A stretch of 45,376 nucleotides of DNA from Gemmatimonadales bacterium (GCA_031388885.1 JANMSC010000095.1:1-45376); one strand, 5' to 3'. Positions 1 to 27,184 are shown, numbered from the stretch's first letter. Program-made: numbers and translations. Notes: generated from the sequence alone by a model not told the origin.

Positions 1-1064
1 CGCGGCAGGAACTCGAGCGCCACGCCGCAGATGACACGCTGTCGCCAGTGGCACGCGCGGCGATGGCGATGGCGCGCCGACTCGACAAGATGCAGGACCG
101 GATCCTCCACGTACGCCTTGCGCCACTCGCCGAGGTGTTCGAGCGGATCCCCCCGATCGTGCGGGACCTTGCGCGGCAGCTTGGCAAAGAGGTCACGGTG
201 GAGATCGTCGGCGACGATCTCGAAGTCGACCGCGCGATTCTCGATCAATTGCCCGAACCGCTGATTCACCTGTTGCGCAATGCGGTCGACCATGGGATCG
301 AATCGCCCGACGATCGGCGCGCCCGGGGCAAGCGTCCCGCCGGAACGATCCGTGTCACGGCTCGACGTGATCGCGACGCGGTAGTGCTGGAACTCGTTGA
401 TGACGGCAACGGCATCGACCGCGAGCGGGTCGCGGACAAGGCGCGTTCGCTCGGACTGCTCGACGATGGCGTGGCGCTGAGCGACGACGGGCTCCTCGCG
501 ATCCTCGCCAAGCCGGGATTCAGCACGGCGACGCAGGTGACCGGCGTCTCCGGTCGCGGTGTCGGACTCGACGCCGTCGTCGTAAGGCTGCAAGGCGTCG
601 GCGCGTCGATCGCGATTACGACGGTTCCGGGCCGGGGCACGGTGTTCTCCATCCGGCTTCCCACCCGACTCGGCATCGTCCGCGCACTGGTGACCGGTAT
701 TGGTGAGGAGCGCTATGTCATGCCCCTCACGCATGTCACGGAACTGGTGCCGTTCGAGGACACGGCGGTGCGGGACGAGGAAGGACGCAGCCTGCTTGAT
801 GTGCAGGGCGAACGCGTGCCGGTGGTCGACATGCGCCGCTTGCTCAGCTTCCGGGGTCCACCGCCGCCCACCCGTCGACCGGCCGTGGTCTTCGAGGCGA
901 ATGGTCAGCGGATTGCGCTGCTCGCCGACGCGGTGCACGGCCAGGTCGATGCCGTCGTTCAGTCGCTGGAACGGCCCCGCGGTATGCCCCGGTGGATTAC
1001 CGGCGCGACGGTGCTGGACGACGGTACGCCGGCGTTGTTGCTGGACCTGGCGAGTGTGGTGTGA
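1..1064 (+). CDS. cheA: Chemotaxis histidine kinase CheA, C-terminal part (5' end lies outside the window; codon phase begins at nt 3)
   Basis: The frame is open from the window edge. The translation has HATPase boxes (HLLRNAVDHGIE, DDGNGID, GVSGRGVGLD) followed by a CheW-like domain (ERYVMPLTHVTELVPF ... ALLLDL). Confidence 0.9.
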   Translation, partial: RQELERHAADDTLSPVARAAMAMARRLDKMQDRILHVRLAPLAEVFERIPPIVRDLARQLGKEVTVEIVGDDLEVDRAILDQLPEPLIHLLRNAVDHGIESPDDRRARGKRPAGTIRVTARRDRDAVVLELVDDGNGIDRERVADKARSLGLLDDGVALSDDGLLAILAKPGFSTATQVTGVSGRGVGLDAVVVRLQGVGASIAITTVPGRGTVFSIRLPTRLGIVRALVTGIGEERYVMPLTHVTELVPFEDTAVRDEEGRSLLDVQGERVPVVDMRRLLSFRGPPPPTRRPAVVFEANGQRIALLADAVHGQVDAVVQSLERPRGMPRWITGATVLDDGTPALLLDLASVV

Positions 1065-1169
1065 CGCAAGAACAACAGGTCGATGGCCGAGAAGCGAGAT
1101 GTCCTACTCCGTATGCCGATTGCCCCACGGCCCACGGCTTGTACCAATCTTGACGAACACGGAGACACA

Positions 1170-1787
1170 ATGACACCCAACGACCTCGAAACCCTGCGGC
1201 GCGACGGCTTGCGTGAAGTGGCCTCGATCGGCGCCGGACACGCGGCGACGGCGCTGTCGCAGCTCACCAACCGCCGGATCATGATTTCGGTGCCGCAGGT
1301 TCGGCGAGTCGCATACGCCGACCTGCCGCAGATGCTGTCGACGTATGGTGATCACGTCGCGGTCGTGTCGATGCGGATGCTCGGTGACCTCACGGGTCGA
1401 TCGCTGCTGGTGTTTGGCGAAGACGACGCGACGCGCCTCTGCGACCTGATCCTGCGCCGCCCGATCGGCCCGCCTCGCGCACTCGGCGAGCTCGAGCGGT
1501 CGGGCCTCAAGGAGGTCGGCAACATCGTCTGTTCCGCGTACCTCACGGCGCTCAGCAACTTCATGGGCATGATGCTGCTCCCCTCGGTGCCAGCGCTCAC
1601 GATCGGGTCGATGCCGCAGGCCATTGCCAGTACCGTCGATCCCAACGAGGCCCAAACCGACCTGGTCTTTTGTGTGGACACGGCCTTCCGTGCCGACGGC
1701 GCCGAGATCCCGCTGACCGGGGCGTTTCTGCTGATGCCCGATCAGGCGTCGATCAAGGCGATCCTCGAGGCGATCCGGCTCGACTGA
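1170..1787 (+). CDS. cheC: CheC-family CheY-P phosphatase
   Basis: Two CheC-type repeats are present (DGLREVASIGAGHAATALSQL and SGLKEVGNIVCSAYLTALSNF...P). I prefer the ATG at 1170, which follows GGAGA, over the ORF-track start at 1083, but the start is not certain. Confidence 0.8.
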   Translation: MTPNDLETLRRDGLREVASIGAGHAATALSQLTNRRIMISVPQVRRVAYADLPQMLSTYGDHVAVVSMRMLGDLTGRSLLVFGEDDATRLCDLILRRPIGPPRALGELERSGLKEVGNIVCSAYLTALSNFMGMMLLPSVPALTIGSMPQAIASTVDPNEAQTDLVFCVDTAFRADGAEIPLTGAFLLMPDQASIKAILEAIRLD

Positions 1788-1788
1788 C

Positions 1789-2391
1789 ATGCCGGCGCCC
1801 CGCGCGCGGGACGCCGTCGTCGTCGCCGCCCTGCTCCGTCGCATCGGCGTCGACGATCCGGTGGCGTTGACCAATGCCGCGTGGTTCTCGGCGCGGCGGG
1901 GACTCACCGCTGCCGCACTCACGTGCGCCCAGCGTGCCGCATCGCTACCCGACGCGCCACGCGCCGCGCACCGCACCCTCCGCCAACTCCTCGCCGGCCG
2001 TGAGGCCGCGCTGCTGCTCTCGCTGCCCCTCGCGATGCATGATGCCGCCGACACCGCGGAGCGTGGGCCGGCGCTGGTCGCGACCGCCGTTGCACCGGAG
2101 GCAGTGCCGCTCACCGACGACGAGATGCTCGCGCTCGGGCGCACGCTCCTTGAGACGGGTCATCTTGCCGAATCGCTCGGGATGTTCGATGCGGTCCTGC
2201 GTCATCGTGGCACCGATCCAGTCGCGCTGTTCCATCGCGGAGTCGTGCTCGCGAAGCTGCGACGCTATGACGATGCACTCTCCGATTGGGGTGCGGTCGA
2301 GCGCGCCGATCCGGATGGTGTGCTTGGCACGCTGAGCCGCCGTCACGCCGCGTCGGCGAAGCAACTCGCCGAACTCTTCGCCACCCGATGA
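1789..2391 (+). CDS. Hypothetical protein with C-terminal TPR-like helical repeats
   Basis: The ATG lies 1 nt after the cheC stop. The C-terminal half (LETGHLAESLGMFDAVL...HRGVVLAKLRRYDDALSDW) looks TPR-like. The N-terminal half is low-complexity Ala/Arg. Confidence 0.55.
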   Translation: MPAPRARDAVVVAALLRRIGVDDPVALTNAAWFSARRGLTAAALTCAQRAASLPDAPRAAHRTLRQLLAGREAALLLSLPLAMHDAADTAERGPALVATAVAPEAVPLTDDEMLALGRTLLETGHLAESLGMFDAVLRHRGTDPVALFHRGVVLAKLRRYDDALSDWGAVERADPDGVLGTLSRRHAASAKQLAELFATR

Positions 2392-2401: not shown

Positions 2402-3319
2402 ATGCACGGCCCGCTGAGCGAGATCGGGCTCGCCGACGTGCTCCAGTTGCTCGAGCGTGGCAAGCGCACGGGGGTGTTGCGCGTGGTCGGACCCGATCCA
2501 ACGACACCGCGCACGCTGTACCTGCAAGCTGGCCGCATCGTCGCCCTTGATCCCGACGCGAGCGACGCGGCGCTCGCAGCCGCGCTCGCCATCCGGGCAC
2601 TCGCGTCCCTCGACCCCGCCACCCCGGAGGATGGGCCCAACGCGGTACCCCATGACGTGCGTGAGGGATTGCGTCGCCGTCTCGCGACTCGGACGCTCGC
2701 CGGGATGCTGCACTGGGTGCGAGGGCGCTTCGATTTTGAGGCGCATCCGGTGGGTGCTGGACCGCTATCCTTGTCGCCCGACGGTATCGTGTTCGATGTG
2801 GTTGATGCCGAAGGGCGCCGCAACGAGCTGGCAGCGGCCACCAACGACTTCCACGCCATCGCGGGGTTCGCGCCGCCCGACATCGTCGCCAGTGGTCCCG
2901 CACCATCACTGGGCGTGCTCGACTGGCGCATCCTCGATCTCGTCGATGGAGCACGCGACATCGCGTCCCTCGCCGCGACGCTCGGTGAGCCGGCTGAAGA
3001 CGTTGCGGATCGCGTCCGCGCACTTATGACCGCGGCTATACTTGTGCTGCAACCACCGTTGGCTGAAGCGGCGCGACTCGCGATCGATGCCGGTCGGTAC
3101 GACGAAGCGATCGCGCTACTCCGCTCTCGGGTGGCGACCGTACCGGACGAGAGCGCTGCCTGGCGTGCACTCGGGCTCGCCGAGGTTGGCGCCGGGCGGT
3201 TCGACCGCGCGGTCGATGCCTGGATGGCGTGGCGCAACGTGGCGCCCGCCAATCGCGACGAAGCCGATACCCTGATCCACGCCGCACGCACCATGCTCGA
3301 GGCCTTGCGAGAGCCGTGA
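2402..3319 (+). CDS. DUF4388/PATAN-like N-terminal domain protein with C-terminal TPR
   Basis: The N-terminus MHGPLSEIGLADVLQLLERGKRTGVLRV matches the DUF4388 signature (G.L....l.dvlQll...k.tG.L). The C-terminus has TPR-like repeats (GRYDEAIALL..., AWRALGLAEVGAGRFDRAVDAW). Confidence 0.75.
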   Translation: MHGPLSEIGLADVLQLLERGKRTGVLRVVGPDPTTPRTLYLQAGRIVALDPDASDAALAAALAIRALASLDPATPEDGPNAVPHDVREGLRRRLATRTLAGMLHWVRGRFDFEAHPVGAGPLSLSPDGIVFDVVDAEGRRNELAAATNDFHAIAGFAPPDIVASGPAPSLGVLDWRILDLVDGARDIASLAATLGEPAEDVADRVRALMTAAILVLQPPLAEAARLAIDAGRYDEAIALLRSRVATVPDESAAWRALGLAEVGAGRFDRAVDAWMAWRNVAPANRDEADTLIHAARTMLEALREP

Positions 3320-4065
3320 ACGAGTTCGCCCCGTTTCCGACGTCCGGCCCGCGAGGCCACGCGTTCCTCGAGTTGGGGGAGCGCCTGCGTCGGCGTGGCC
3401 AGCTTGATGCGGCCGCCACGGTCGCCAGCGCGGGACTGTCACACTATCCCGCCCTCGCCGACGCCCACGACTTGCTCGGGCGGATCCGCGCCGACCTGGA
3501 TGACGACGACGCCGCCACCGCGGCGTGGCAGTCGGCACTCGAGTGTGATCCCGGGCACGCGGGTGCCCGCAAGGGACTCGCGTTTCTCGCGTTTCGGCGC
3601 CGCGACTTCGCCGCGGCCGAGCGCCAGCTCGAGGCCGCCGCGTCGCAGGCCCCGCACGATGTCACGCTGCTCGCCGCCCTCGATCGCGTGCGCGTTGCGC
3701 GTCCCGCCAGTGAAGAATCGCTTCGCCTCGACGATCCGTCGAGCGGCCTCGTGCTGTTCGATGCAGAGGGGATGCGCCTGATCGGTGGCATCAGCCTGAC
3801 CGCTGGCGATGCCACGGCAGATGCCGTTGCAGCGGAAGGCGCCGGCTTCGTCCGGGATGCTGCTCGGGCCGCGCGGTTGCTTGACCTCGGGGCGTGGCGT
3901 CAACTTGTGGTCGAGGCGCCCGATGCGCGAATCGCATTGCTGCCGGTCGGCCGGGATGCCTCGCTGCTTGTGTGGCGGCCGGCAACAACCCCACTCGGCC
4001 GACTGGTCGCGACGGCAACTCGCGCCGGCGCTGCGGCTCGCGAGTGGCTCGAGAGGATGGCATGA
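3316..4065 (+). CDS. TPR - Roadblock/LC7 fusion protein
   Basis: The GTG at 3316 overlaps the upstream stop (GTGA). The N-terminal half has TPR repeats (AHDLLGRIRADLDDDDAATAAWQSALECDP, ARKGLAFLAFRRRDFAAAERQL). The C-terminal half (LVLFDAEGMRLIGGIS...ARIALLPVGRDASLLV) has the Roadblock/LC7 (MglB-like) pattern. The ORF-track start at 3229 would overlap the upstream gene by 91 nt. Confidence 0.7.
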   Translation: MNEFAPFPTSGPRGHAFLELGERLRRRGQLDAAATVASAGLSHYPALADAHDLLGRIRADLDDDDAATAAWQSALECDPGHAGARKGLAFLAFRRRDFAAAERQLEAAASQAPHDVTLLAALDRVRVARPASEESLRLDDPSSGLVLFDAEGMRLIGGISLTAGDATADAVAAEGAGFVRDAARAARLLDLGAWRQLVVEAPDARIALLPVGRDASLLVWRPATTPLGRLVATATRAGAAAREWLERMA

Positions 4066-4884: not shown

Positions 4885-5502
4885 ATGGCACGACTCGCAG
4901 CCGACGGGATGTCGCTGACGGTCACGCTCGTGATCTTCGGCCCATCGCGCTCGGGCAAAAGTTCGCTGTTGCGCGGCGTACACGATCGACTCGGCGACGG
5001 GCCCGGTACGGCCCGCATGGCCGACGCGACACCGTTCAGTCCACTCGACTGGCTGGCGATCGATCTCGGCGTCATCGGTGGCCGTAACGCGACCGTCCAC
5101 CTGTATGCGGTGCCGGGCCTCGCGGCGTACGACAGCACCCGTCGATTGTTGCTCAGCCAAGCGGACGGTGTCGTCTTCCTGGCCGATTCGCAGGGCAGCC
5201 GACTCGAGGCGAACCTTGATGCGCTGCGGCAGTTGCAGGATCACGTGCTCGCGCGCGAGGGCGACATGCGCGAACTCCCGATAGTGTTCCTCTACACCAA
5301 GCAGGATCTTCCCAGTGATCTGGTGCTACCACTCGCCGCGCTCGACGAAGCGCTGAACTTTCGCAACGCGCCAAGTTTTACGGGCGATGCACTGCGAGGC
5401 ACCGGCGTGCGCGACGCGTTGCAGGCCGCACTCACCCTGGTGCTTCGTCGCCTCGCGGTGACCACCGAACCCGCCGATGTCGCCGGGTTCGGGGCCGGGT
5501 GA
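4885..5502 (+). CDS. mglA: MglA-family Ras-like small GTPase
   Basis: P-loop GPSRSGKS. HLYAVPGLAAYDSTRRLLLSQADGVVFLADSQ aligns with M. xanthus MglA [32 protein letters not shown] (MglA sequence recalled from memory). The G4 motif is TKQD. The start lies 2 nt after the upstream stop; an alternative ATG is at 4909. Confidence 0.85.
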   Translation: MARLAADGMSLTVTLVIFGPSRSGKSSLLRGVHDRLGDGPGTARMADATPFSPLDWLAIDLGVIGGRNATVHLYAVPGLAAYDSTRRLLLSQADGVVFLADSQGSRLEANLDALRQLQDHVLAREGDMRELPIVFLYTKQDLPSDLVLPLAALDEALNFRNAPSFTGDALRGTGVRDALQAALTLVLRRLAVTTEPADVAGFGAG

Positions 5503-5509
5503 GGCCGTC

Positions 5510-7477
5510 ATGCTGAATCCGCACGCGCGGTTCGCATCGTTCGTCGTCGGATCGTCGAACCGACTTGCAGCCACAGCCGCCAAGGCGGTCGCCGAGGCGC
5601 CAGGAGCGGCGTATAACCCGTTGTTCATCTACGCCACGCCAGGCCTCGGCAAGACCCACCTGCTGATGGCGATCGGCCACGAGGCGCAGGCGATCGATCC
5701 GGCGCGTACCGTGGAGTACGTCACGGTGGATGACTTTGTCGAGGCGTATCACGCGGCCCTCGCGGCGGGGCAAGCCGAGGCCTACCGGCGCCGATTCACG
5801 GAGGCCAGCCTTGTCCTGCTCGACGATGCGCAGTTGCTCTCCGATCGGCGTGAGCTGCAATCGGAGTTGCTCCGCCTGATCGACGTGTTGACCGCGGCGG
5901 ATCGACAGATTGTGCTCGCCGGCGACCGTCCGCCCGAGGAAATCCAGTCGCTCGATGAACGCTTGATTCGCCGCTTCGCGGGTGGACTGGTGATTGACAT
6001 TGGTGCACCAGACTACGAGACCCGTCTCGCGATTCTCTCGCGACGCGCCAAGGATCGGCATGCATCGTTTTCGCCGGAGGTGTTGTCGACCGTTGCGGAA
6101 TCGCCGATTGCCACGGTGCGTGAGCTGGTTGGTGCGTTCAACCGACTCGTGGCACAGCAAGCGGTACAGGCCGAACCGCTCACCGCCGGTGAGGCGCGCG
6201 CGCTGCTCGAGGCGCTGGGGCATCGCCGCGACAAGGGCGACGGTCCAGGCATGATCGTTGGTCGTGACACGGTGCGGTCGACCGACGGGTACCAGCCCGT
6301 GGAGCGCGACGAGTTTTCCGATTTTCTCACCGACCTCTCCACCACCGTTGGTCAACAAGTCGACCGCTGGCGTCAACGCGTGACCGAATCGTCGTTGCGC
6401 CATGCGGCGGCGGGATTTCGCACCGCGCGCCTCGATGCGTTGCTCGCGACCGACATGGCTGGTGATCCGGAGGATGCGCTGGCGGCGTTCGAAGCCGACG
6501 TCGCCTCGCTGCGGGCGCTGCAACTGGAACTGGAGCACGTCGCGCCGTCGCTGACGAGCGACGCCGCGTTGCACGATCCGGACCGAGTCGGCGACGCCGA
6601 AGCCCTGGTGGCAGAGGCTCGCGAGGCGGGCGAACCGTTACCGGGTCCGTCCCCCAGGAGCACGCTCGATGCGTTCGCCACCGGTCCCTCGACGCGATCC
6701 GTGGTTGAAGCGATTCGTGCGGCGGCTTCGTCACCCGGCCACCGCTACAATCCGCTGGTGATCGTTGGTCGGCCTGGCACAGGCAAGTCTCATCTGCTGC
6801 ATGCGTTCGGCCACGCCCTCAAGGCAGCCGGCCTGGCCCGCGTCGCGGTACTTGATGCATCCCAGTTCGTTGACGGGTTGGTCGGCTCCCTCGGCGAGGG
6901 GACCGTGGCCACATGGCGCCAGCGCTTGCGGCGTCTCGACGCGCTCCTGATTGACGACGTCCATGTGCTTGGGGGCAAGGAGCGCAGCCAGGAAGAGCTC
7001 TACCTCGTGTACAACCTGTTGCTCGAATCGGGACGCCAGATGGCGTTCACCGCCGTGTCTGCACCGGCACAGCTCACGGGGTTCGAGCAGCGCCTTGCCA
7101 CGCGTCTCGCGGGGGGGTTGGTGATCGAACTGGGGCCACCCGACCGCGAGGCAAAAGTGATCGAGGTGGCGCGCCTGCTCGGCGCGGCAGCCGCGGAAGA
7201 CGATCTCGTGGAGTACCTCGCGTCACGGCCCGCGTCGTCGGTGCGTGAAACCCAGCAACTGGTCCAGCGCGTGATCGTGGCAGCGGATGCGCGTCAGGCC
7301 ACGCTCTCGCTGGCACTGGTCCGGACCATCATCGAGGGTGACCCGGCCGAAACGCCCCGCGTCCCGCGGCGCGGCAGCGGCTTGCTCGCACCAGCAAGCG
7401 GTGCGATTCGCTCGCGCGAGAAAATGGTGGAGACGTGGCCCGATATGGCTGAGCGGCTGCTCGAGGAGTGGCGCTGA
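5510..7477 (+). CDS. Tandem DnaA/Hda-like AAA+ ATPase (two complete DnaA domain-III modules, no domain IV)
   Basis: Module 1 has Walker A PGLGKT (nt 5639-5656), Walker B LVLLDDAQ, sensor I VLAGDRPP, box VII ERLIRRFAGGLVIDIGAPDYETRLAIL and sensor II VRELVGAFNRL. Module 2 has Walker A GRPGTGKS (nt 6767-6790), Walker B ALLIDDVH, FTAVSAP, QRLATRLAGGLVIELGPPDREAKVIE and VRETQQLVQRV. I prefer the ATG at 5510, which follows GGTGAGG, over the ORF-track start at 5477. Confidence 0.85.
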   Translation: MLNPHARFASFVVGSSNRLAATAAKAVAEAPGAAYNPLFIYATPGLGKTHLLMAIGHEAQAIDPARTVEYVTVDDFVEAYHAALAAGQAEAYRRRFTEASLVLLDDAQLLSDRRELQSELLRLIDVLTAADRQIVLAGDRPPEEIQSLDERLIRRFAGGLVIDIGAPDYETRLAILSRRAKDRHASFSPEVLSTVAESPIATVRELVGAFNRLVAQQAVQAEPLTAGEARALLEALGHRRDKGDGPGMIVGRDTVRSTDGYQPVERDEFSDFLTDLSTTVGQQVDRWRQRVTESSLRHAAAGFRTARLDALLATDMAGDPEDALAAFEADVASLRALQLELEHVAPSLTSDAALHDPDRVGDAEALVAEAREAGEPLPGPSPRSTLDAFATGPSTRSVVEAIRAAASSPGHRYNPLVIVGRPGTGKSHLLHAFGHALKAAGLARVAVLDASQFVDGLVGSLGEGTVATWRQRLRRLDALLIDDVHVLGGKERSQEELYLVYNLLLESGRQMAFTAVSAPAQLTGFEQRLATRLAGGLVIELGPPDREAKVIEVARLLGAAAAEDDLVEYLASRPASSVRETQQLVQRVIVAADARQATLSLALVRTIIEGDPAETPRVPRRGSGLLAPASGAIRSREKMVETWPDMAERLLEEWR

Positions 7478-9096
7478 TGGCGATCAAGGGGTCACTCAAG
7501 GAAGCGTCGCTCGCCGACGTGGTGCAGCTGCTGTTCCTCGGCGGGCGTACCGGCTGCCTCTCGGTCGCGAGCGAGCGCAACTTCGGCTCGATCTGGTTCG
7601 ATGACGGATGGATTTCGTTCGCCGGTATGGTGTCGCGGCAGGATCGTCTGGGTGAGCGATTGGTTGCCGCGGGCACGTTGTCGGCGGCACAGCTCGACCA
7701 GGCGATCGCGACCCACGGTGCGACTGCCGGTCGGCGGTTGGGCAGCGTGCTGGTGCAGCTCGGGTTTCTTGGTATGCGCGAACTTGAACTGGAGCTGCGT
7801 CGGCAAGTCGAGGAGACGGTGTACACGCTCTTCACGTGGACGAGCGGCACGTTCTCCTTCGAGGCCGGCGTCAAGCCGGAAGACGCCGAAGCGACGTTGC
7901 GCCTGAATCCCGAGGGACTGTTGCTCGAGGGGGCACGACGCGTTGACGAATGGAGCGTCATCGCAAAAAAGATTCCGTCCCTTGACGTCGTGTACGCGCG
8001 GGAAGGCGAAGCCCGGCCGGCGGCCGATGATGCCGAACTGGTCGACATCGAAAAGCTGGTGTTGCCGCTGCTCGATGCGGTCCGCACGGTGCGTGCCGTC
8101 ATGGACGCGACCGGCCTCACGGATTTTGAGGTGTGCCGGGCACTCTACGGACTGCTGTCCGCGGGGCGGATCCGCCGGGTGGCGACCGCGGCGGCGCCGG
8201 CACCGCGGCAGGGTGCGGCACGTGTCGAAGAACATCGCAACCTTGGCATCGCGTTCTACCGCACCGGGATGCTGGCCGAAGCGGAGCGCGAGTTCCGGCG
8301 CGTGGCCGAATTGCAGCCGCAGGGCGGGGAAGGGCCGTTCCATCTCGGGTTGATCGCGCTGCGACAGGCACGGTGGAGCGATGCGCTGGAGGCGTTCATG
8401 CTTGCGGCGGACCGCGCCGGACCGCGCACTGCGGTGCTCCACAACCTGGCACTCGCGCTCGAGGCCATGGGCCGGCTCGACGAGGCAGACGCGGCGTTTG
8501 CCGACGCGCTCGAACGAGATCGCGACGATGCCCGCGTGTGGACTGGATGGGGCCTGCTGGCCCTCCGACGCAACGACGCGCCGCGTGCGCTGGAGCGATT
8601 CGCGCAGGCGCGCGATCGCTTTGATCAGCAGGTGGCGCCGGCACGCTGGTACTGGGGGTGCGGCTGGGCACAGGCCCTTTCTGAGACGTGGCCCGACGCG
8701 CTCAACACGGTCCGGGAAGGGGTTGCAGCGTATCCCGATCATCCGGTGCTCCGCACGACCCTGGGCGTGCTGCTCGAGGCGACCGGCGAAGTTGGCGAAG
8801 CCGAGGCGCACCTCCGCCACGCACTGGGCGAGGATCCAACCATTCCGCAGATCTCGAAGAACCTCGGCGACCTGCTCTACCGGGCCGGCCGGTGGGATGA
8901 GGCCGAAGAGTCCTACGAGCGCGCCGCCAAGCTGGCACCGTCGCTTGGTGACGACTTGTACTTCAAGCTCGGCAATCTCGCGTGTCGGCGGGGTGACTTC
9001 GCGGTGGCTCGGCGGCATTGGGGCGACGCGATCGCAATCAATCCAGAGCACGCGCTGGCGCGGGCCAACCTCGCGGGGTCGGGGACCGCGGCATGA
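7477..9096 (+). CDS. DUF4388/PATAN-like domain protein with long TPR array
   Basis: The ATG overlaps the upstream stop (TGATG); a GTG at 7468 is an alternative. The N-terminus is MAIKGSLKEASLADVVQLLFLGGRTGCLSV. At least 6 TPR-like repeats follow (e.g. HRNLGIAFYRTGMLAEAEREFRRVAELQP, SKNLGDLLYRAGRWDEAEESYERAAKLAP). Confidence 0.8.
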   Translation: MAIKGSLKEASLADVVQLLFLGGRTGCLSVASERNFGSIWFDDGWISFAGMVSRQDRLGERLVAAGTLSAAQLDQAIATHGATAGRRLGSVLVQLGFLGMRELELELRRQVEETVYTLFTWTSGTFSFEAGVKPEDAEATLRLNPEGLLLEGARRVDEWSVIAKKIPSLDVVYAREGEARPAADDAELVDIEKLVLPLLDAVRTVRAVMDATGLTDFEVCRALYGLLSAGRIRRVATAAAPAPRQGAARVEEHRNLGIAFYRTGMLAEAEREFRRVAELQPQGGEGPFHLGLIALRQARWSDALEAFMLAADRAGPRTAVLHNLALALEAMGRLDEADAAFADALERDRDDARVWTGWGLLALRRNDAPRALERFAQARDRFDQQVAPARWYWGCGWAQALSETWPDALNTVREGVAAYPDHPVLRTTLGVLLEATGEVGEAEAHLRHALGEDPTIPQISKNLGDLLYRAGRWDEAEESYERAAKLAPSLGDDLYFKLGNLACRRGDFAVARRHWGDAIAINPEHALARANLAGSGTAA

Positions 9097-9935
9097 CCGA
9101 CGAGACCGTGACGGGGTTGCGCGCGGACTATCAGCGCCTGGCCGACGCGATGGCTGGTGAGCCCGATCCGCGCGCGCGGGCAGCGCTCAAGGCAGAGATC
9201 GTTGCCCTGTTCCGTCGCACCGAGACGACGATCGCTGACCTCGCGTCATTCAAGGAAACGATTCGCGATCTCGTCGCACAGTACAAGTCGCTTCCCGACG
9301 CGACCAACGCCGCTCCGTCGGTCCGCCACGATCACATCGGTGCGTCCACCTTCATCGACCGTGGCTGGACGGAGCTGGCCGCCGGGAACTGGAGCGCTGC
9401 CGAGACGATGTTGCGACGTGCCAGCGAGCTCGACGCCACGAGTACCAGCGCGCAGTCGCTACTGGGGTGGGCGCTGGTGCACCAGGACCAGCTCGACGAC
9501 GCCCTCGAGCTGTGCCTCCGGGTGGTCCAGCGCGAACCGGAGCACGGCCTCGCGCACGTGGCCATCGGGGTGGTGTGTCTGCGCAAGGGGATCGTGGGCG
9601 AGGCGATCGAGCACCTGTCCCGGGTCGCCGCGAACGGCGGTGATCCACGGGCGGCGCTGTACGCGAACTACTGGCTTGGCGTGGCGTATCTGGAGCGCGA
9701 GATGTACGGCGACGCAGTGGAGTTTCTGCGTCGGGCACTGGCGCTGGGCCCGAACCTCGGCGAAGGATGGGCCGAACTCGGGCGGGGGCTCTGGTTCCTT
9801 GGACACGCAGCCGATGCCAGGGAAGCGTGGACGGTGGGTTCGCGGGTCCGTTTCTCGCCGCACGCGATGCGCTGCGCGGCAATGCTGGAGACGACGACTG
9901 CTGGAGGATCACCACCACGTCTCACGTCGCACTGA
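9093..9935 (+). CDS. TPR repeat protein
   Basis: ATGA overlap with the upstream stop. TPR-like repeats are present (RGWTELAAGNWSAAETMLRRASELD, YWLGVAYLEREMYGDAVEFLRRALALGP). The last ~35 codons do not look TPR-like and overlap the next ORF. Confidence 0.7.
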   Translation: MTDETVTGLRADYQRLADAMAGEPDPRARAALKAEIVALFRRTETTIADLASFKETIRDLVAQYKSLPDATNAAPSVRHDHIGASTFIDRGWTELAAGNWSAAETMLRRASELDATSTSAQSLLGWALVHQDQLDDALELCLRVVQREPEHGLAHVAIGVVCLRKGIVGEAIEHLSRVAANGGDPRAALYANYWLGVAYLEREMYGDAVEFLRRALALGPNLGEGWAELGRGLWFLGHAADAREAWTVGSRVRFSPHAMRCAAMLETTTAGGSPPRLTSH

Positions 9936-10855
9936 TTGCGCTGTTCCTGCTGCAGGCAACCCAGCCCCGCCCGACGCGAGACGCACTGGTCCGCCTCGAG
10001 ATTGGCAACATCACCGTCATCACGGATCGTCGTCACGTGGCGCTTGCGACCGCACTGGCGGAGGCCGCCAGTCGGTCCAGACGGTGGCTCGGGCTTGGGT
10101 TCGTCGATCCGGGTCCGCTGGTGCTTGCGGTCGCTCACGATGGGGCGATGCTGGGGCGGTGGTCGCAGGGGCGTATCCCGGGGTGGGGCGCGGGCTTCGC
10201 CTTGCCGAGCGCACGCACGATCGCCATTCGGGCCGACGGTGGTGACGCGTTCGGGACCCTGCGCCATGAGTTGGCGCACATCGCGCTGCACCAGCGCGTG
10301 AAAGGGCGCGTACCGCTCTGGTTCAGTGAGGGCTACGCGGTGCTTGCCGCCGGTGAGCATGGCCGCATGGACGCGCTACAACTCAACCTCAGCGTCGTCG
10401 CCGGGCGGGTGCCCGACCTGCGCGGACTCGACGCCGCCCTCCGTGCGGGCGCGAGCGACGCCGAGGCGGCCTACGCTCTCGCCGGGTCGGCGGTCGGCGA
10501 ACTTGCTCGGCGGAACCCTGGTCGGACGCTCGACCCGCTCCTCGCGCAGCTCGCGGCCGGTGCGTCGTTCGACGCTGCCGTACTGGCCACGACGGGGTTG
10601 ACGCCGGACCGGTTTGACGAGGTCTGGTACCGGAGCGTGCGCCGCCGGTACAACTGGGGGATCTGGTTCATCACCGGCGGCGTTTGGCTTCTGGTGGCCG
10701 TGGGGCTTGGTGTGTTGGCGATCTGGCGACGGCGGTACGACGCGCCGCGACGGGCTGCTCTCGACATCGGCTGGTCACTGCCGCCTGACGAGGAACATGA
10801 CAATATCATTACTGTTGCCGGAGCGCCGCTTGACCGTTCTGACACCGATCGCTAG
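9767..10855 (+). CDS. Peptidase MA-like zinc metallohydrolase with C-terminal TM anchor (start uncertain)
   Basis: HExxH (LRHELAHIALH) plus the downstream WFSEGYA glutamate motif. C-terminal TM segment NWGIWFITGGVWLLVAVGLGVLAIW. Candidate starts are ATG 9767, GTG 9827, or a non-canonical CTG at 9932 that overlaps the upstream TGA. Confidence 0.6.
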   Translation: MGRTRAGALVPWTRSRCQGSVDGGFAGPFLAARDALRGNAGDDDCWRITTTSHVALIALFLLQATQPRPTRDALVRLEIGNITVITDRRHVALATALAEAASRSRRWLGLGFVDPGPLVLAVAHDGAMLGRWSQGRIPGWGAGFALPSARTIAIRADGGDAFGTLRHELAHIALHQRVKGRVPLWFSEGYAVLAAGEHGRMDALQLNLSVVAGRVPDLRGLDAALRAGASDAEAAYALAGSAVGELARRNPGRTLDPLLAQLAAGASFDAAVLATTGLTPDRFDEVWYRSVRRRYNWGIWFITGGVWLLVAVGLGVLAIWRRRYDAPRRAALDIGWSLPPDEEHDNIITVAGAPLDRSDTDR

Positions 10856-11207: not shown

Positions 11208-12926
11208 ATGTTGCAACGCATGACCCTGGCGATTCTCGCCACGATGTCTTCAGCACCGCTCGCGACGGCCCAGATTCGGCCCGGCGCGCGACTCGGCAGC
11301 ACGGTCGTCAGCCAGGCTCCGAAGCTGCTGGTGGCGAATCCGAGTGCGAACACCGCCGACTCCGCCGCTGCCGTGACGATCGGTCGCGCCATGCGTGAGC
11401 GGATGGAGCGGTCCGTTGGGAGCGCGTGGTCGGTGCTCACTCGGACCCAGATGAACGAAGCGCTGACGACGTTCGGCTATCCGATCGATGCCATCCTGCC
11501 CGCCAACGCAGCGCGACAGTTGGCGTCGTCGATGACGGCCCGCGCCGCCGTGCTCGGCACGTTGTCGAAGGGCACCGATGGCCGCTTTTCCGTCACCATG
11601 CGTGCCGCAGGCATTGCGGCCGATGCCACGGGTCACGTTGTCACGTTGACCCAGGCGCCGGGCCAGTCGCTCACGGACTTTGGGGCGAAGCTTGCCGACG
11701 CCATCACGCCTGCCACCAAGGCGATGGTCGATGCGAAGGGGTGCATGGATCAGCGCGAGACGAAAAAAGACAGGGCGGCTTCGGACGCCGCCAAGGCGAC
11801 GAAGGTCGTCCCGAGCCACGGATTGGCCGAATACTGCCTCTCCCTCCTGGCGCTTCAGCGTGGTGATACGGCGGCCCAGCTGCGCCACCTCGAGAACGCG
11901 GTCAGGGGCGATCCGCAGTCGCTAGTCGCGTGGAGTGCGATCGGCGTGATTGCGCAGGTTCGCAGCGACACGACCAGGGTGATCGACGTGTATCAGCGGA
12001 TGCTGGCAGTCGCGCCGACCAATCAGGAACTCCGCGAGGAGGCGTACAAGCTCTTCAGTCGGTACCAACGGCCGGATGCTGCCATGGAAGTCGTCAACAA
12101 GGGGCTGGAAGTTGATCCCTCGAATCCAGACCTCTTCGACCTTCGCAGCAACATTTGTCTGGGCAAGGAAGACTACCCGTGCGCCATCGCTGCACTTGAG
12201 CAGGTGTACGCGCTCGATTCGGCGAAAGCCGACACGAACTACTACGCGAAGATCCTGTTCGCGGCGTCGCAGCGCCCTGACACCGCGAAGTATCTTGAAT
12301 GGGCCCGTCGTGGCGCGACCAAGTACCCCGACAACGCCGGTATCCTCGAAGGCCTCGCGCGGGCGTATGGTGTTGCCGGCCTGGTCGACTCGTCGGTCGT
12401 GGTCACGCGACGCCTGGTGCAGATAGATCCGTCGAACACCGGAGCCGTGAACCAGATCGTGAAGACGATGACGGAATCCGGCAAGGCGCGACAGGCGCTC
12501 GAATTCGCCCCGTTGATCAAGGCGAGCAACGACCCGGATGCGCAGGACAATTTTGCCGGGTTGATCCTGGTTGCCGCGCAAGGTGTGGCGAATGCCGCCA
12601 CCAAGAACTGGCCGTTGTTGGTTGAGCTCGCCGAAGGTGCCCTCGCGAGCGGCACGACGTCGGCCGAACGCACCGTCACGGCGAACTTCATGCTCGGCTA
12701 CGGCGCGTACTTCCAGGTGGCCGCGCTCTCGCAGCGCGTGCGCGCGCAGAAGTCATGCGAACTCGCACGCGAGGAACAGGCGCTGGTGAACAAGGCCGTA
12801 CCGGCCCTCGAGATTGCGTCGACCGGTTCGACACCGCAGCTTGCGAGCACCGCGAAGCAGCTCCTCGGACCGATGCAGCAAGAGAAAACGGCAATGCCGG
12901 CGTTGATACAGAGTTTCTGTCGGTAG
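11208..12926 (+). CDS. Secreted TPR repeat protein
   Basis: Signal peptide MLQRMTLAILATMSSAPLATAQ. Multiple TPR-like repeats run through the C-terminal two thirds (e.g. AWSAIGVIAQVRSDTTRVIDVYQRMLAVAP). Confidence 0.75.
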   Translation: MLQRMTLAILATMSSAPLATAQIRPGARLGSTVVSQAPKLLVANPSANTADSAAAVTIGRAMRERMERSVGSAWSVLTRTQMNEALTTFGYPIDAILPANAARQLASSMTARAAVLGTLSKGTDGRFSVTMRAAGIAADATGHVVTLTQAPGQSLTDFGAKLADAITPATKAMVDAKGCMDQRETKKDRAASDAAKATKVVPSHGLAEYCLSLLALQRGDTAAQLRHLENAVRGDPQSLVAWSAIGVIAQVRSDTTRVIDVYQRMLAVAPTNQELREEAYKLFSRYQRPDAAMEVVNKGLEVDPSNPDLFDLRSNICLGKEDYPCAIAALEQVYALDSAKADTNYYAKILFAASQRPDTAKYLEWARRGATKYPDNAGILEGLARAYGVAGLVDSSVVVTRRLVQIDPSNTGAVNQIVKTMTESGKARQALEFAPLIKASNDPDAQDNFAGLILVAAQGVANAATKNWPLLVELAEGALASGTTSAERTVTANFMLGYGAYFQVAALSQRVRAQKSCELAREEQALVNKAVPALEIASTGSTPQLASTAKQLLGPMQQEKTAMPALIQSFCR

Positions 12927-13047: not shown

Positions 13048-13103
13048 TTCTCGCCACCCCGCCCGGTATGATTCTGGCGGGGTGGTTTGTTTTCCTTGGA
13101 GCC

Positions 13104-14024
13104 ATGAGTGACGTCGAGATGCATCACGTGCCCGTCCTGCTCGAGCCGATCATCGCCCGGGCCCGCGGGAGCGTGCGCGTGGTGGACGGGACGCTCGGGC
13201 ACGGCGGGCACGCGGCGGCGTTTCTCGCTGGTGGCGCCGAGGTGCTCGGCATCGATCGCGACCCTGACGCCATCCGCACGGCGCAGTCGCGAATCGCCGT
13301 TGGTGCCCGGATCCACTATTTGCAGGCGCAGTACGCATCCGACGAGGCGCTCGCCGCCATCCAGCGCTTTCACCCCGACTTTGCGCTCCTCGATCTCGGC
13401 GTGTCGTCGCGCCAGCTCGACGACGAACGTCGTGGGTTCACGTTCCGCCCCGGTGCACCGCTCGACATGCGCATGGGACCTGACGCTCAAACCGCCGCCG
13501 AGTGGCTGATGACAGCCGATGAAGCCACCATTGCGACCGTCTTCCGTGACTACGGCGACGAACCGCGTGCCCGGCGTCTGGGCGCCGAAGTCGTGCGCCG
13601 TCGCGGTAATGCCGCGTTCGCCACCAGCGATGATCTGGTCAATGCCATTCGGGCGGCCTTGGGTCCGAGGTCGGGTCCGGCAGAGTTTGCCCGGATCTTT
13701 CAGGCTGTGCGGATCGCGGTCAATGACGAACTCGTCGGCTTGCGGCGTGCGCTCCCGGCGATCCGCGAGGCGCTCGGCCCAGGCGGAACACTCGCCGTGA
13801 TCAGTTATCATTCGGGCGAGGATCGACAGGTGAAGGGCGCGTTCCGCGAGTGGAGCGCGGGGTGCGTCTGTCCGGGCGGATTGCCCCAGTGCGTGTGTGG
13901 TCACGTGCCGTTGGGTATTGCCCATCCTCGCAAGGCCGTCGTGCCGTCCGATAGCGAAATCGCTGCCAACTCCCGTGCCCGCAGCGCCAAGCTGCGCTTC
14001 TTCCGGAATCGCGATGCAGGTTAG
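13104..14024 (+). CDS. rsmH: 16S rRNA (cytosine1402-N4)-methyltransferase RsmH (MraW)
   Basis: HVPVLLEPI, DGTLGHGGHA, LLDLGVSSRQLD, SYHSGEDRQVK. The ATG at 13104 is preceded by GGAG. Confidence 0.93.
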   Translation: MSDVEMHHVPVLLEPIIARARGSVRVVDGTLGHGGHAAAFLAGGAEVLGIDRDPDAIRTAQSRIAVGARIHYLQAQYASDEALAAIQRFHPDFALLDLGVSSRQLDDERRGFTFRPGAPLDMRMGPDAQTAAEWLMTADEATIATVFRDYGDEPRARRLGAEVVRRRGNAAFATSDDLVNAIRAALGPRSGPAEFARIFQAVRIAVNDELVGLRRALPAIREALGPGGTLAVISYHSGEDRQVKGAFREWSAGCVCPGGLPQCVCGHVPLGIAHPRKAVVPSDSEIAANSRARSAKLRFFRNRDAG

Positions 14025-20191: not shown

Positions 20192-21537
20192 CCCGTATCG
20201 ATGAGTGGCGCGCGTCCGGGCGCGAGGTGAGCGTTGCGGGTCTGGGTCGCAGCGGTGTCGCCGCGGCACAGTTGCTTTCGCACCACGGAGTCAAGGTGTA
20301 CGCCTCCGACGCGAAGGCTTCCACCGCCCGCCCGGTCGGGTTGCCGCCGAGCGTTGTTGTCGAGGTCGGCCGGCACGACCTCGATCGCATTGCCACGAGC
20401 GCAGCGCTGGTGCTGTCGCCCGGCATTCCCCCGACCGCGTCGGTGGTGCGCACCGCCATCGAACATCGCGTGGCCGTCATTGCAGAAGCACAGCTTGGCC
20501 TCGACGCACTCGCCGGCGTACCGTACATCGCGGTCACCGGCACCAATGGCAAGACCACCACGACCGCGTTGCTCGACCACATATTGCGGGCGGCCGGTGT
20601 GCGGAGCGTAGCGGCGGGCAATATCGGCAGGCCGCTGTCTGCTGTTGCGTGCGAAGCGGTACGCCCCGAATGGGTCGCTGCAGAGCTCTCGTCGTTTCAG
20701 CTGCACGACATGCCCGACGTCTCTCCCACGGTAGGGGTGCTGACGAACCTGGCGCCCGACCATCTCGATCGCTACCCGACGCTCGCCGAGTACTACGCCG
20801 ACAAGGCCAGATTGTTCGGCAACGCGCGACCGGCCTCGATCTGGGTGACGAACCTCGACAATTCCGAATCCCGAACGATGATCCGCGACATCGTCGGGCG
20901 CCACCTCGCCTTTACGACGGTACGCGACACGCGCGCCGACGCCTGGTACGATCGCAATGGAGATCAGCTGATGCTCGCCGGGCGGCCGTTGCTGGCGCGG
21001 GCCGACTTCCCGCTCCTGGGTGACCACAACGTGGCGAACGCGCTGGCGGCGTCGCTGGCGTTGCATGCCGCGGGTTTCGCAGCCGATCGCATCGCGTCCG
21101 GCCTCGCCACCTTCCGGGCGTTGCCCCACCGCGTCGAGCCGGTGCGGGAGCTCGACGGCGTACTCTGGATCAACGACTCGAAGGCGACCAACATCGCGTC
21201 GACGTCGGTGGCGATACAGGCGATGACACGGCCGTGCGTGCTGTTGCTTGGCGGGCGACACAAGGGGGAACCCTATACCGCACTCGCCGCGGCGCTCCGG
21301 GCACATGCCACGGCCGTTGTGGCCTACGGCGAAGCAGGCGAACAGATCGAACGCGACCTGCGCGATGTGGTCGAGGTGGTGCGCGCCGCAACGTTCGACG
21401 ACGTGATGGCGACGGCTCGCGGCATGGCGCCAGCCGGCGGCACTGTGCTGCTCTCCCCGGCCTGCTCGAGTTACGACATGTTCAGCAACTACGAAGAGCG
21501 TGGCGCCCGGTTCCGTGCGATCGTGGAAGGATGGTGA
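20188..21537 (+). CDS. murD: UDP-N-acetylmuramoylalanine--D-glutamate ligase
   Basis: GLGRSGVAAAQLL, VTGTNGKTTTTALL, NDSKATN. ATGA overlap with the mraY stop. Confidence 0.93.
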   Translation: MTRIDEWRASGREVSVAGLGRSGVAAAQLLSHHGVKVYASDAKASTARPVGLPPSVVVEVGRHDLDRIATSAALVLSPGIPPTASVVRTAIEHRVAVIAEAQLGLDALAGVPYIAVTGTNGKTTTTALLDHILRAAGVRSVAAGNIGRPLSAVACEAVRPEWVAAELSSFQLHDMPDVSPTVGVLTNLAPDHLDRYPTLAEYYADKARLFGNARPASIWVTNLDNSESRTMIRDIVGRHLAFTTVRDTRADAWYDRNGDQLMLAGRPLLARADFPLLGDHNVANALAASLALHAAGFAADRIASGLATFRALPHRVEPVRELDGVLWINDSKATNIASTSVAIQAMTRPCVLLLGGRHKGEPYTALAAALRAHATAVVAYGEAGEQIERDLRDVVEVVRAATFDDVMATARGMAPAGGTVLLSPACSSYDMFSNYEERGARFRAIVEGW

Positions 21538-22694
21538 CTGCGCCGTCGGTGAGACATCCCGGCGAGTTCCGCTGGGAAACCCGCCTGCTGGCGGTCGTCA
21601 CGCTGGTGCTGACCGTGTTCGGAATTGCAAATTGTTACGCGGCGGCCACGTATCTCGAGGCGTGGTTCAACGAGGCAACCGACCAGGTGTCCGGCGCATT
21701 GATCGGGGGGGTCGTGTTCCTCGCGGCAGCGTACTCCGACTACCAGATCTGGCGGCGGTTCGCGCGCCCGCTCTTTCTCGCCACCGTGGTCGGGCTCGTC
21801 GTCCTTGCCGTGGTCGCGCTCGCCTTCGGATCGGAGCAGAGTCCGGCCGCGGTCGGCGCGGTCGTGCCGTTTCTCAATGGTGCCAGGCGGTGGTTCAAGA
21901 TTGGCCCGGTGACGATCCAGGTATCGGAGATCGCTCGCTTCACGCTGACGGCGTTCGTGGCGGCGCGTGCCGTCGAACTGGGCGGCAAGGTGCGCAGCTT
22001 TCAGGGCGGATTTCTTCAGCTGGTTGCACCGATTGCCCTCGTCGTGGGCCTGGTCGCGGTCGAGCCCAACCTGTCGATGGCCATCGTGCTCGGCGTCGCG
22101 GGCGGCATGGTCGTGTTCACCGCTGGCGCACATCTCGGACACGTGCTGTTGCTCGCCCTCATGGGATTCGCCGGCGTCGGGGCGATGATCACGTTCTCGG
22201 GGTTTCGCTCCGATCGTCTCGACCGATACCGCGATACGGCGGCGATGTGCGACCCGACGCGACAAGAGTGCGCGTCGTTGATAGGCTACGGCAATGGTGG
22301 CCTCGTCGGACTCGGGTTCGGTGAGGGAACCCAGAAGCTCGGTCACCTGCCGTACGGATATTCCGATTTCATCCTGTCGACGATCGCGGAAGAATGGGGC
22401 TTGATTGGCGTCTTTTTCATGACGCTCTGCTTTGGGCTCTTCTGCTGGATGGGTTTCCGGATCGCCAAGACGGCCCGCGATCCATTCGGCATGTTCCTCG
22501 CCAGCGGGCTGACGGCGATGGTCGGTCTCGCTGCCTTCCTGCACGCCGCAGTGGTCACGCAGCTCATTCCAGCCACCGGGCTCACGCTCCCGTTTGTGTC
22601 TGCGGGACGCGTGTCACTCATCATGTACCTGTTCAGCGCCGGCGTGATCGTGTCCGTCGGACGCCGTCGTGGGCGCCCGGCGCGACAACGATGA
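21531..22694 (+). CDS. ftsW: Peptidoglycan glycosyltransferase FtsW (SEDS family)
   Basis: Polytopic membrane protein with SEDS motifs (QVSEIARF, GYSDFILSTIAEEWGLIG, GLTLPFVSAGRVS). The ATG at 21531 overlaps the murD stop. The ORF-track start at 21234 is an in-frame upstream extension inside murD. Confidence 0.9.
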   Translation: MVTAPSVRHPGEFRWETRLLAVVTLVLTVFGIANCYAAATYLEAWFNEATDQVSGALIGGVVFLAAAYSDYQIWRRFARPLFLATVVGLVVLAVVALAFGSEQSPAAVGAVVPFLNGARRWFKIGPVTIQVSEIARFTLTAFVAARAVELGGKVRSFQGGFLQLVAPIALVVGLVAVEPNLSMAIVLGVAGGMVVFTAGAHLGHVLLLALMGFAGVGAMITFSGFRSDRLDRYRDTAAMCDPTRQECASLIGYGNGGLVGLGFGEGTQKLGHLPYGYSDFILSTIAEEWGLIGVFFMTLCFGLFCWMGFRIAKTARDPFGMFLASGLTAMVGLAAFLHAAVVTQLIPATGLTLPFVSAGRVSLIMYLFSAGVIVSVGRRRGRPARQR

Positions 22695-23800: not shown

Positions 23801-23826
23801 CCGGATGTGTTCCACTCAACCTCGTC

Positions 23827-24351: not shown

Positions 24352-24359
24352 CCCTGATG

Positions 24360-26687: not shown

Positions 26688-26708
26688 CACCACTCTCAGG
26701 AGCAACCC

Positions 26709-27135: not shown

Positions 27136-27184
27136 CATTGGCACGAGGCATGGGGCGAGGGCTAGACGGCAACCGCTCCTCGCT

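Follow-up and report, generated by a model that had tools for sequence, protein, structure and literature searches.

What does a protein do when it is made from the ATPase core of DnaA, the replication initiator, yet carries no DNA-binding domain and is encoded among signaling genes? The question is raised by a plus-strand gene at positions 5510 to 7477 of a 45,376-nucleotide (nt) stretch of DNA from a Gemmatimonadales bacterium (GCA_031388885.1, JANMSC010000095.1:1-45376), the whole of which is referred to here as the window. The product, called the tandem protein below, holds two DnaA domain-III modules in one chain. It was classified as an initiator-clade AAA+ protein of the DnaA/Hda family with a new architecture and a nonreplicative context. 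We propose, with a probability of roughly one half, that it is a noninitiator ATP switch or scaffold that works with a PATAN (DUF4388)-TPR protein in a Che/MglA-MglB polarity operon. The broader statement, that it is an ATP switch associated with signaling or polarity and not an initiator, is likely to be correct.

The two-module architecture described in the first-pass annotation was borne out by profile and structure searches alike. Pfam PF00308 (Bac_DnaA) matched the protein twice, at amino acids (aa) 2 to 163 (E value, 4.5e-47; full profile, positions 1 to 162) and at aa ~383 to 540 (1.2e-37), and all the motif strings quoted for the two halves were found in the translated sequence. Module 1 carries Walker A ATPGLGKTH (aa 42 to 50), Walker B LLDDAQ (aa 103 to 108), sensor I D139-R140, box VII arginines R151/R155, and sensor II R204. 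Module 2 carries Walker A GRPGTGKSH (aa 420 to 428), Walker B LLIDDVH (aa 479 to 485), the segment GKERSQEE (aa 489 to 496), box VII arginines R528/R532, and sensor II R573. The AlphaFold2 model, made from a 47-sequence alignment (mean predicted local distance difference test [pLDDT] score, 87.7), contains two confident AAA+ base-plus-lid modules, each with a hallmark of the initiator clade, a two-helix insertion following strand 2 (helices 73 to 85 and 89 to 97 in module 1). Domain III of Bacillus subtilis DnaA (8bv3) was the best Foldseek match of the model, with a template modeling (TM) score of 0.96 on the target and a root mean square deviation (RMSD) of 1.4 Å.

The absence of domains I, II, and IV was likewise sustained. 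Neither DnaA_N nor Bac_DnaA_C (PF08299) gave a Pfam match even at an E value of ≤10 when pieces of the protein were scanned separately, leaving two domain-III matches and zero domain-IV matches. The NCBIfam DnaA model TIGR00362 aligned only at model positions 104 to 342 of 437, which is domain III. The first residue of the protein aligns to M110 of B. subtilis DnaA, where domain III starts, and throughout the family only 6 to 12 residues precede the first conserved Phe. Past module 2, the AlphaFold2 model shows disorder and a short tail and no domain IV. The tandem protein thus shares with DnaA domain III, in both modules, the full Bac_DnaA profile, Walker A and B, box VII arginines, sensor II, two-helix insertion, and lid, together with sensor I in module 1 only, but it differs in having two modules per chain, no domain I/II, an added helical domain and acidic tail, and a signaling operon instead of a dnaN/oriC neighborhood. 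Since there is no domain IV helix-turn-helix, it should be unable to read DnaA boxes.

The label "DnaA/Hda-type" could be kept only in its first half, as TIGR00362 outscores the Hda model TIGR03420 for each module (246.8 versus 78.2 bits for module 1 and 169.8 versus 86.1 bits for module 2). The whole protein reached 158.7 bits with TIGR03420, so that it and its modules all fall below the cutoff of 194.8 bits. Module 2 scored 124 bits against B. subtilis DnaA and ~37 bits against solved Hda structures; an Hda origin of module 2 was ruled out by these model and structure scores. With Hda/HdaA, the protein has in common a DnaA-derived AAA+ core without DNA-binding domains and with the arginine finger kept. 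In contrast, Hda is a single module of ~230 to 250 aa with an N-terminal clamp-binding motif, whereas the tandem protein has two modules in 655 aa, no N-terminal extension, and no match anywhere to the beta-clamp motif (QL[SDP]L[FPL] or Q[LIVM].[LIVM][FLPW]). Module 1 shares ~40% identity with domain III of B. subtilis DnaA in the Foldseek alignment and 30% with module 2. A recent internal duplication was unsupported, because module 2 is no nearer to module 1 (105 to 110 bits) than to the DnaAs of unrelated phyla (118 to 126 bits).

The gene itself appears sound. Its longest open frame spans 5477 to 7477, the probable start is ATG 5510, which lies 7 nt past the upstream TGA and is preceded by GGTGAGG, and the G+C content of the window is ~67%. 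Among 5.8 billion proteins searched, more than 115 clusters had 100% query coverage, 54 to 100% identity, and lengths of 642 to 673 aa; members with a name are annotated as "DnaA/Hda family protein" or "DnaA ATPase domain-containing protein" and belong to metagenome-assembled genomes (MAGs) of Gemmatimonadales or Gemmatimonadota. When 1.84 billion representatives at 50% identity were searched exhaustively, dozens more of 640 to 700 aa were added, which align end to end at 30 to 62% identity and whose named members are all Gemmatimonadales. A second large subfamily of ~605 aa, set beside the ~650-aa subfamily of the window protein, comprises more than 118 clusters from Gemmatimonadota, including Longimicrobiales. 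In all, there are more than 350 full-length clusters, their named members all from Gemmatimonadota, and none of the named homologues was recognized as coming from a cultured isolate. When one genome per species was scanned, 46 full-length loci were found, all in Gemmatimonadota except one on a 4-kb low-coverage contig binned as Solirubrobacterales.

Against this distribution, the suggestion that the gene is an artefact (misassembled or frameshift-fused genes, a pseudogene, or a helper of an IS21/IstB-type mobile element) is effectively refuted. It could draw on an IstB_IS21 match of 59.7 bits and on two copies, in the MFD long-read MAGs L036 and L043, that are split over several frames. However, the Bac_DnaA score is 286 bits, the IstB/DnaC helper model NF038214 gave 88 bits and so fell short of its cutoff of 200, the chromosomal synteny is fixed, and no transposase or helicase gene lies near the tandem gene in the surveyed loci. 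At L036 and L043, the tandem gene, MglA, PATAN-TPR, Peptidase_MA_2 (PepMA), and MraW genes are each broken into 2 to 5 frames; since the neighbors are frameshifted as well, the splits are read as assembly indel errors and not as pseudogenes. The same uninterrupted open reading frame (ORF) of 600 to 670 aa occurs in hundreds of independent assemblies, with homologues at 54 to 100% and at 30 to 60% identity, and the view of a single real gene was upheld.

Conservation of catalytic residues was compared in 286 sequences falling into three sets, the ~650-aa subfamily, divergent representatives, and the ~605-aa subfamily. Walker A (G45, G47, K48, and T49) and Walker B (D105 and D106) of module 1 are kept in 100%, at least 94%, and 100% of the three sets, respectively. 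For sensor I, the box VII arginines, and sensor II of module 1, the corresponding values are 100%, ~58 to 86%, and 100%. In module 2, Walker A and B are 100% conserved in the ~650-aa subfamily except at G423 (115/118) and at D483, the second acidic position of Walker B (104/118), ~84% in the divergent set, and 0% in the ~605-aa subfamily, where G423 is replaced by E, K426 by A or G, and the Walker B DD by H/Y-G, and where the entire module 2 lid is missing. R492 and the box VII pair R528/R532 are nevertheless retained in 100%, 58 to 76%, and 100% of the three sets. The box VII arginine fingers R155 and R532 are therefore present in every member of both large subfamilies. The module 1 ATP site is the sole universally conserved ATP site of the family, and module 2 is kept throughout as a folded AAA+ core with its arginines, even where nucleotide binding has been lost. 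Accordingly, the description of "two complete modules" holds for the window protein but not for the family, as module 2 is degraded in the ~605-aa subfamily.

The region between the modules proved to be more than a spacer. Its helical part does exist, but the region is ~145 aa long and not ~180 aa as first estimated, and it consists of a variable disordered connector followed by a conserved, folded helical domain. Near-universal residues of this domain are F269, F272, W287, G302, and D356-P357. It had no Pfam or NCBIfam match and no fold match in the PDB (best Foldseek E value, 3.3). At the other end of the protein, a disordered segment (aa 615 to 637) precedes a conserved acidic tail. The W of a "WP" pair lies exactly 13 residues from the C terminus (WP plus 11 residues) in all 118 of the ~650-aa and all 118 of the ~605-aa sequences and in 36 of the 50 divergent representatives. 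The tail ends in ..R-L-[LI]-E-[ED]-W-x in the ~650-aa subfamily and in L-L-I-E-E-L-D-COOH in the ~605-aa subfamily, giving the family pattern ..EE[WL]x-COOH. The signature residues of both linker and tail are nearly universal among the 286 sequences.

Gene context was surveyed at 45 loci, and neighbors within 400 nt were counted at the 40 testable ones. The start of a PATAN-TPR gene lies within that distance downstream of the tandem gene in 40 of 40 loci, and the end of an MglA homologue lies within it upstream in 38 of 40. The two loci without MglA belong to the ~605-aa subfamily, and no Che, Roadblock, or MglA genes were found at any of the four sampled loci of this subfamily. There, the order is (YggS-DivIVA-)IleRS-RluD-tandem-PATAN/TPR-PepMA, with an NtrC-type regulator after PepMA at L085 and L086. 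The PATAN-TPR gene again follows the tandem gene at L085 to L087. At L087, a Gemmatimonadaceae MAG locus, it is followed by CheR-CheD-CheB-AAA-CheW-CheW, so that the pair sits amid a complete chemosensory operon, and at L001 a full CheW-response regulator-CheA set lies near the pair. The first-pass annotation had placed the gene in translational coupling between an MglA-like GTPase and a DUF4388-TPR gene. The coupling is tight, but only the PATAN-TPR partner is invariant. The constant partnership is that of the tandem protein with PATAN-TPR (and PepMA), the stop codon of the tandem gene overlapping the start codon of the PATAN-TPR gene, while MglA/MglB and Che are frequent, dispensable neighbors. 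The genes around L087 include a 266-aa AAA-type ATPase (11792 to 12592; AAA_22/AAA_16 matches) between cheB and the two cheW genes, and the chemosensory operon genes around the L087 tandem gene account for an extra ~5 kb in this ~50%-identity clade.

In the window, the operon runs from CheA (C-terminal part) through CheC-like, TPR, PATAN-TPR, TPR-Roadblock, Roadblock, MglB-like, and MglA-like genes to the tandem, PATAN-TPR, and TPR genes, and -4 to +18 nt separate one gene from the next. The PATAN-TPR gene starts at ATG 7477, where it overlaps the tandem TGA by 1 nt (TGATG), and not at GTG 7468. In an alignment of 45 MglA orthologues, the window MglA has lost three catalytic positions (Myxococcus xanthus numbering; R53 to A, T78 to A, and Q82 to L) with its P-loop intact, and R53 and Q82 are kept in 35/45 and 40/45 orthologues, respectively. 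To judge from these residues, the MglA of the window clade may be GTPase dead or GTP locked.

The constant partner is a probable cyclic di-GMP (c-di-GMP) receptor, as judged by its motifs. The alpha-helical insertion of its PATAN domain holds two copies of the MshEN-type motif with the consensus RLGxx(L/V/I)(L/V/I)xxG(L/V/I)(L/V/I)xxxxLxxxLxxQ. The corresponding regular expression had 65 matches in 107 PATAN ORFs and 0 in 1.72 million other six-frame residues of the loci. Partners of the ~605-aa subfamily carry variant copies of the motif.

Taken together, the data suggest a mechanism whose individual steps are tentative, each being somewhat doubtful on its own. Module 1 would bind and hydrolyze ATP and so act as a nucleotide-dependent switch. 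A box VII arginine of module 2 would complete an ATP site, either in cis or between chains arranged head to tail in an oligomer, comparable with the DnaA-Hda pair or with an ATP-dead clamp-loader subunit; in the ~650-aa subfamily, module 2 would contribute a second ATP site. The TPR domain of the partner may receive the ..EE[WL]x-COOH end of the tail, much as TPR carboxylate clamps hold EEVD-COOH peptides; the IEELD-COOH end of the ~605-aa subfamily differs by one residue from the IEEVD of Hsp70. Binding of c-di-GMP to the PATAN insertion of the partner, together with Che and MglA signals where these are present, might gate the ATPase state. The output would be the control of a cell polarity or motility apparatus of the type IV pilus type and not the firing of origins.

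The proposed switch agrees with previous work on polarity and pilus control. MglA-GTP recruits the PilB ATPase via the TPR effector SgmX, and PATAN proteins co-occur with SgmX (PMC11580455). In Synechocystis, the motor of the type IV pilus is reported to be bound by PATAN response regulators (bioRxiv 10.1101/2021.06.11.447907). Group 1 MglA is present in Gemmatimonadetes (PMC4316618). In addition, a signaling role is supported by one family member, P0184, which carries a receiver domain and is encoded in a phosphorelay locus. P0184 is a true member, with module 1, linker, and module 2 in one contiguous alignment (aa 6 to 546) ahead of its C-terminal receiver domain, and its gene (locus L084, 8001 to 10217; ENA ERZ28493041) lies beside Hpt-REC-Hpt-REC genes, a PAS hybrid histidine kinase, and a response regulator-HD-GYP phosphodiesterase.

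The signaling reading is further supported because separate proteins that combine MshEN with DnaA-type modules adjoin pilB, pilT, pilC, pilD, and pilS. This type IV pilus locus (L083, 2359 to 13973; GCA_030620115.1, JAUXFG010000024.1), ordered pilD ... pilB, pilT, pilC, pilS, has four consecutive MshEN genes (983, 436, 398, and 1990 aa); in three of them MshEN is joined to either one or two AAA+ modules of the DnaA type, the 436-aa product being MshEN only. A relative of these fusions is named from Candidatus Fermentibacteria. Their membership in the tandem family was ruled out module by module, since the modules are nearer to canonical DnaA and lie 1,300 aa apart in P0197; their whole-protein ranking was inflated through summed module scores. 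In our view, the DnaA core was drawn into c-di-GMP/pilus signaling here independently and in parallel, and the fusions are another uncharacterized use of this core outside replication.

Several known systems resemble parts of this arrangement. The Frz-MglA/MglB-SgmX module of Myxococcus likewise unites a Che-like system, MglA, MglB, extra Roadblock proteins, and TPR proteins in one operon (PMC11580455; PMC4316618). It has no DnaA-like ATPase part as described, and its MglA differs from that of the window lineage, which lacks R53, T78, and Q82. The secretion ATPases T2SS-E/PilB that are linked to MshEN offer another example of an ATPase paired with an MshEN-type motif; here, however, the motif lies in the cotranslated PATAN-TPR protein, c-di-GMP binding is predicted from the motif, and the ATPase is a DnaA-type AAA+. 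Type II AAA+ proteins (Cdc48/p97, NSF, Rix7, and ClpB) also have two AAA+ modules per polypeptide, one of them degenerate in some lineages. They differ in belonging to the classic clade and forming stacked hexameric rings, whereas both tandem modules are of the initiator clade, and they have no counterpart to the ~145-aa insert between the modules; p97 and Rix7 aligned only loosely with the tandem model (Foldseek RMSD, >14 Å; 14 to 18% identity), DnaA being the best match for both modules.

A parallel for the ~605-aa subfamily is found among degenerate subunits. The clamp-loader delta-prime subunit and some ORC subunits are ATP-dead AAA+ proteins that persist as arginine-finger donors, and module 2 of the ~605-aa subfamily has similarly lost its P-loop and Walker B while keeping R528/R532 in 100% of sequences. 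It thus appears to be an arginine donor only, a condition that also recalls Hda/HdaA. In contrast to the tandem modules, which are fused and occur in a signaling context, those subunits are separate components of DNA replication machines.

A number of points weigh against a signaling and polarity switch. The functional statements made here are all drawn from the sequence, the structure prediction, and the gene neighborhood. The window holds no genes of a type IV pilus. The predicted TM score of the AlphaFold model is 0.52, so that the placement of one module relative to the other, and hence the pairing of arginine fingers in cis, is not fixed by the model. On the PATAN-TPR partner, the MshE-related c-di-GMP model NF053729 (NCBIfam) scored 39.4 bits, only just above its cutoff of 38, and Pfam MshEN had no match. 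Moreover, the box VII arginines of module 1 are 100% conserved in the ~605-aa subfamily despite the lack of an ATP site in module 2, which means that their target may lie in another chain or in a foreign protein such as DnaA. In module 2, R492 and the hydrophobic V458 stand at the DnaA positions that contact single-stranded DNA (ssDNA), and binding of nucleic acid is possible. Finally, the pair always lies just after a conserved divIVA-ileS-(dksA-like)-(lspA)-rluD block (L085, 2444 to 3847; L086, 4067 to 4750; L001, 1 to 2824), and in the ~650-aa subfamily also just before mraW. With or without the Che/Mgl block, it therefore sits between two sets of cell-division genes across the phylum, which could point to division in place of motility.

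The spare arginines of module 1 are one hint of a role on DnaA itself. The tandem protein would then be a replication or cell-cycle regulator that co-oligomerizes with DnaA and whose arginine fingers promote the hydrolysis of DnaA-ATP or keep filaments from growing. Like Hda but without a clamp, it would tie initiation to polarity, c-di-GMP, or division signals. The resemblance of module 1 to B. subtilis DnaA domain III in identity and fold, the retention of all box VII and sensor residues in both large subfamilies, and the conserved place between the divIVA-ileS-rluD block and the dcw (division and cell wall) cluster all speak for such a regulator. However, the protein has neither a clamp-binding motif nor an N-terminal extension, and its score with the Hda model is under the cutoff. 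No dnaN, recF, or gyrB gene was found in the window or at any of the 45 loci, nor was dnaA or any other replication gene present at any locus; a canonical dnaA is assumed to lie elsewhere in the same genomes. The invariant partners are signaling proteins (PATAN-TPR, MglA/B, and Che), and the receiver-domain fusion lies in a phosphorelay locus. We consider this role unlikely. A related proposal, that a c-di-GMP-gated DnaA-derived switch links polarity or chemosensory signals to the cell cycle while docked on PATAN-TPR at the pole or division site, is a long shot. In that case, the spare invariant arginine fingers might hetero-oligomerize with genuine DnaA or time division, as a clamp-independent counterpart of Hda.

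The residues at the ssDNA-contact positions raise a different possibility, an ATP-dependent filament or remodeler of single-stranded nucleic acid that would, for example, anchor or organize DNA or RNA at the cell pole. By alignment to 8bv3, R492 and V458 fall at DnaA residues that are reported to contact ssDNA (E. coli V211/R245 and B. subtilis I190). Such a function is encouraged by the two-helix insertion retained in both modules and by module 2, where the GKERSQEE segment is kept, R492 is invariant in both large subfamilies, and position 458 is V or I. In module 1, however, the hydrophobic residue is replaced by His, Gln, or Glu and the Arg by Glu, the protein lacks a domain IV for targeting DNA sites, the context holds no nucleic-acid enzymes, and R492 could be purely structural. 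A nucleic-acid filament is thus very unlikely. The first-pass annotation had argued for a nucleotide-switch complex in place of replication initiation; this proposal fits all the context evidence and is itself an inference.

If a signaling and polarity switch is correct, the consequences reach beyond this locus. The literature search found no paper that joins DnaA with MglA and Roadblock and no description of comparable tandem or domain-IV-less DnaA paralogues, in agreement with the earlier statement that no tandem version had been described; the only paper in which both MshEN and DnaA occur names each of them a single time. The family suggests that the DnaA ATPase core was duplicated and reused, without its DNA-reading domain, as a component, found across the phylum, of a signaling operon; if so, DnaA-family AAA+ modules are more than replication parts. 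A conserved three-way link is indicated that joins an AAA+ switch to PATAN-TPR, the probable c-di-GMP receptor, and to the MglA/MglB polarity GTPase system in a poorly studied phylum. The two large subfamilies also provide a natural experiment, one with two live ATP sites and the other with one live site and an arginine-only module, in which the mechanism can be tested by mutagenesis.

Annotation is affected as well. Database names of the family are generic or, for many members in JGI, "chromosomal replication initiator protein." The initiator labels likely arise because the whole protein, by summing, reaches 412.6 bits and passes the TIGR00362 equivalog cutoff of 343.9 bits, whereas the single modules (246.8 and 169.8 bits) both fall below it. 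Such mislabeling can mislead dnaA-based origin prediction and gene counts in Gemmatimonadota. The features of the tandem gene and of its operon are compiled in the table.

Table. Features of the tandem gene, its partner, and the surrounding operon in the window
Feature	Position (nt)	Strand	Evidence or remarks
Tandem DnaA-domain-III protein	5510..7477	+	655 aa; stop TGA 7475-7477; 100% identical to P0001 (NCBI)
Module 1, AAA+ base and lid (aa 1-235)	5510..6214	+	Pfam E 4.5e-47; TIGR00362 246.8 bits; 8bv3 E 2e-49
Variable disordered connector (aa ~236-268)	6215..6313	+	pLDDT <50 for aa 242-269; unconserved and length-variable across homologue alignments
Conserved helical linker domain (aa 269-373)	6314..6628	+	pLDDT 85-96; stand-alone model pLDDT 81
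Module 2, AAA+ base and lid (aa 381-612)	6650..7345	+	Pfam E 1.2e-37; TIGR00362 169.8 bits; 8bv3 124 bits
C-terminal tail (aa 617-655), RRGSGLLAP..RSREKMVETWPDMAERLLEEWR	7358..7474	+	Low pLDDT; alignment of family C termini
PATAN(DUF4388)-TPR partner, 539 aa	7477..9096	+	DUF4388 E 3.8e-33, and TPRs
Two MshEN-type 24-aa motifs in PATAN alpha-helical insertion	7645..7806	+	aa 57-80 RLGERLVAAGTLSAAQLDQAIATH; aa 87-110 RLGSVLVQLGFLGMRELELELRRQ
CheA C-terminal part (HATPase_c and CheW domain)	48..1064	+	Gene start probably upstream of window
CheC-like protein	1083..1787	+	E 2e-16
TPR protein	1789..2391	+	Pfam
Upstream PATAN-TPR protein, 305 aa	2402..3319	+	Pfam; without MshEN motif
TPR and Roadblock protein	3316..4065	+	Start GTG 3316
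Second Roadblock/LC7 protein, ~117 aa	4062..4415	+	Robl_LC7 E 3e-9; ATG 4062 overlaps upstream stop; 117-aa orthologue in L001
MglB-like Roadblock/LC7 protein, 155 aa	4415..4882	+	PDB MglB E 2.4e-10; NCBIfam and Pfam matches
MglA-family small GTPase, 205 aa	4885..5502	+	PDB M. xanthus MglA E 8e-30
TPR protein	9093..9935	+	ATG 9093 overlaps PATAN-TPR stop
Peptidase_MA_2 protein	9767..10855	+	Start uncertain; core trio member with tandem gene and PATAN-TPR

Downstream of the last TPR gene in the table, Peptidase_MA_2 and a TPR protein of 572 aa come next in the window, and the dcw cluster (mraW, ftsI, murE ... ftsA, ftsZ) follows them. The cluster extends from mraW (13068 to 14024) to ftsW (21234 to 22694) and, after a gap, from murC (29714 to 31087) to ftsZ (32863 to 34254). 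The interruption, at 22892 to 29581, consists of ~7 kb of genes on both strands, among them a class-V aminotransferase (24616 to 25908, minus strand) and several small ORFs without a family match.

The canonical-length relatives that best match module 1 belong to Clostridia, Myxococcota, and a MAG binned as Thermoplasmata and not to Gemmatimonadota. DnaA-like genes with ~41 to 46% identity to module 1 were also seen on archaea-binned contigs (L049, L050, L069, L071, L077, and L080) from Thermoplasmata/Thermoplasmatota and Methanobacteriota MAGs; P0263 is among them, and one is named DnaA [Thermoplasmata archaeon]. These genes could reflect misbinning or horizontal transfer of a bacterial initiator.

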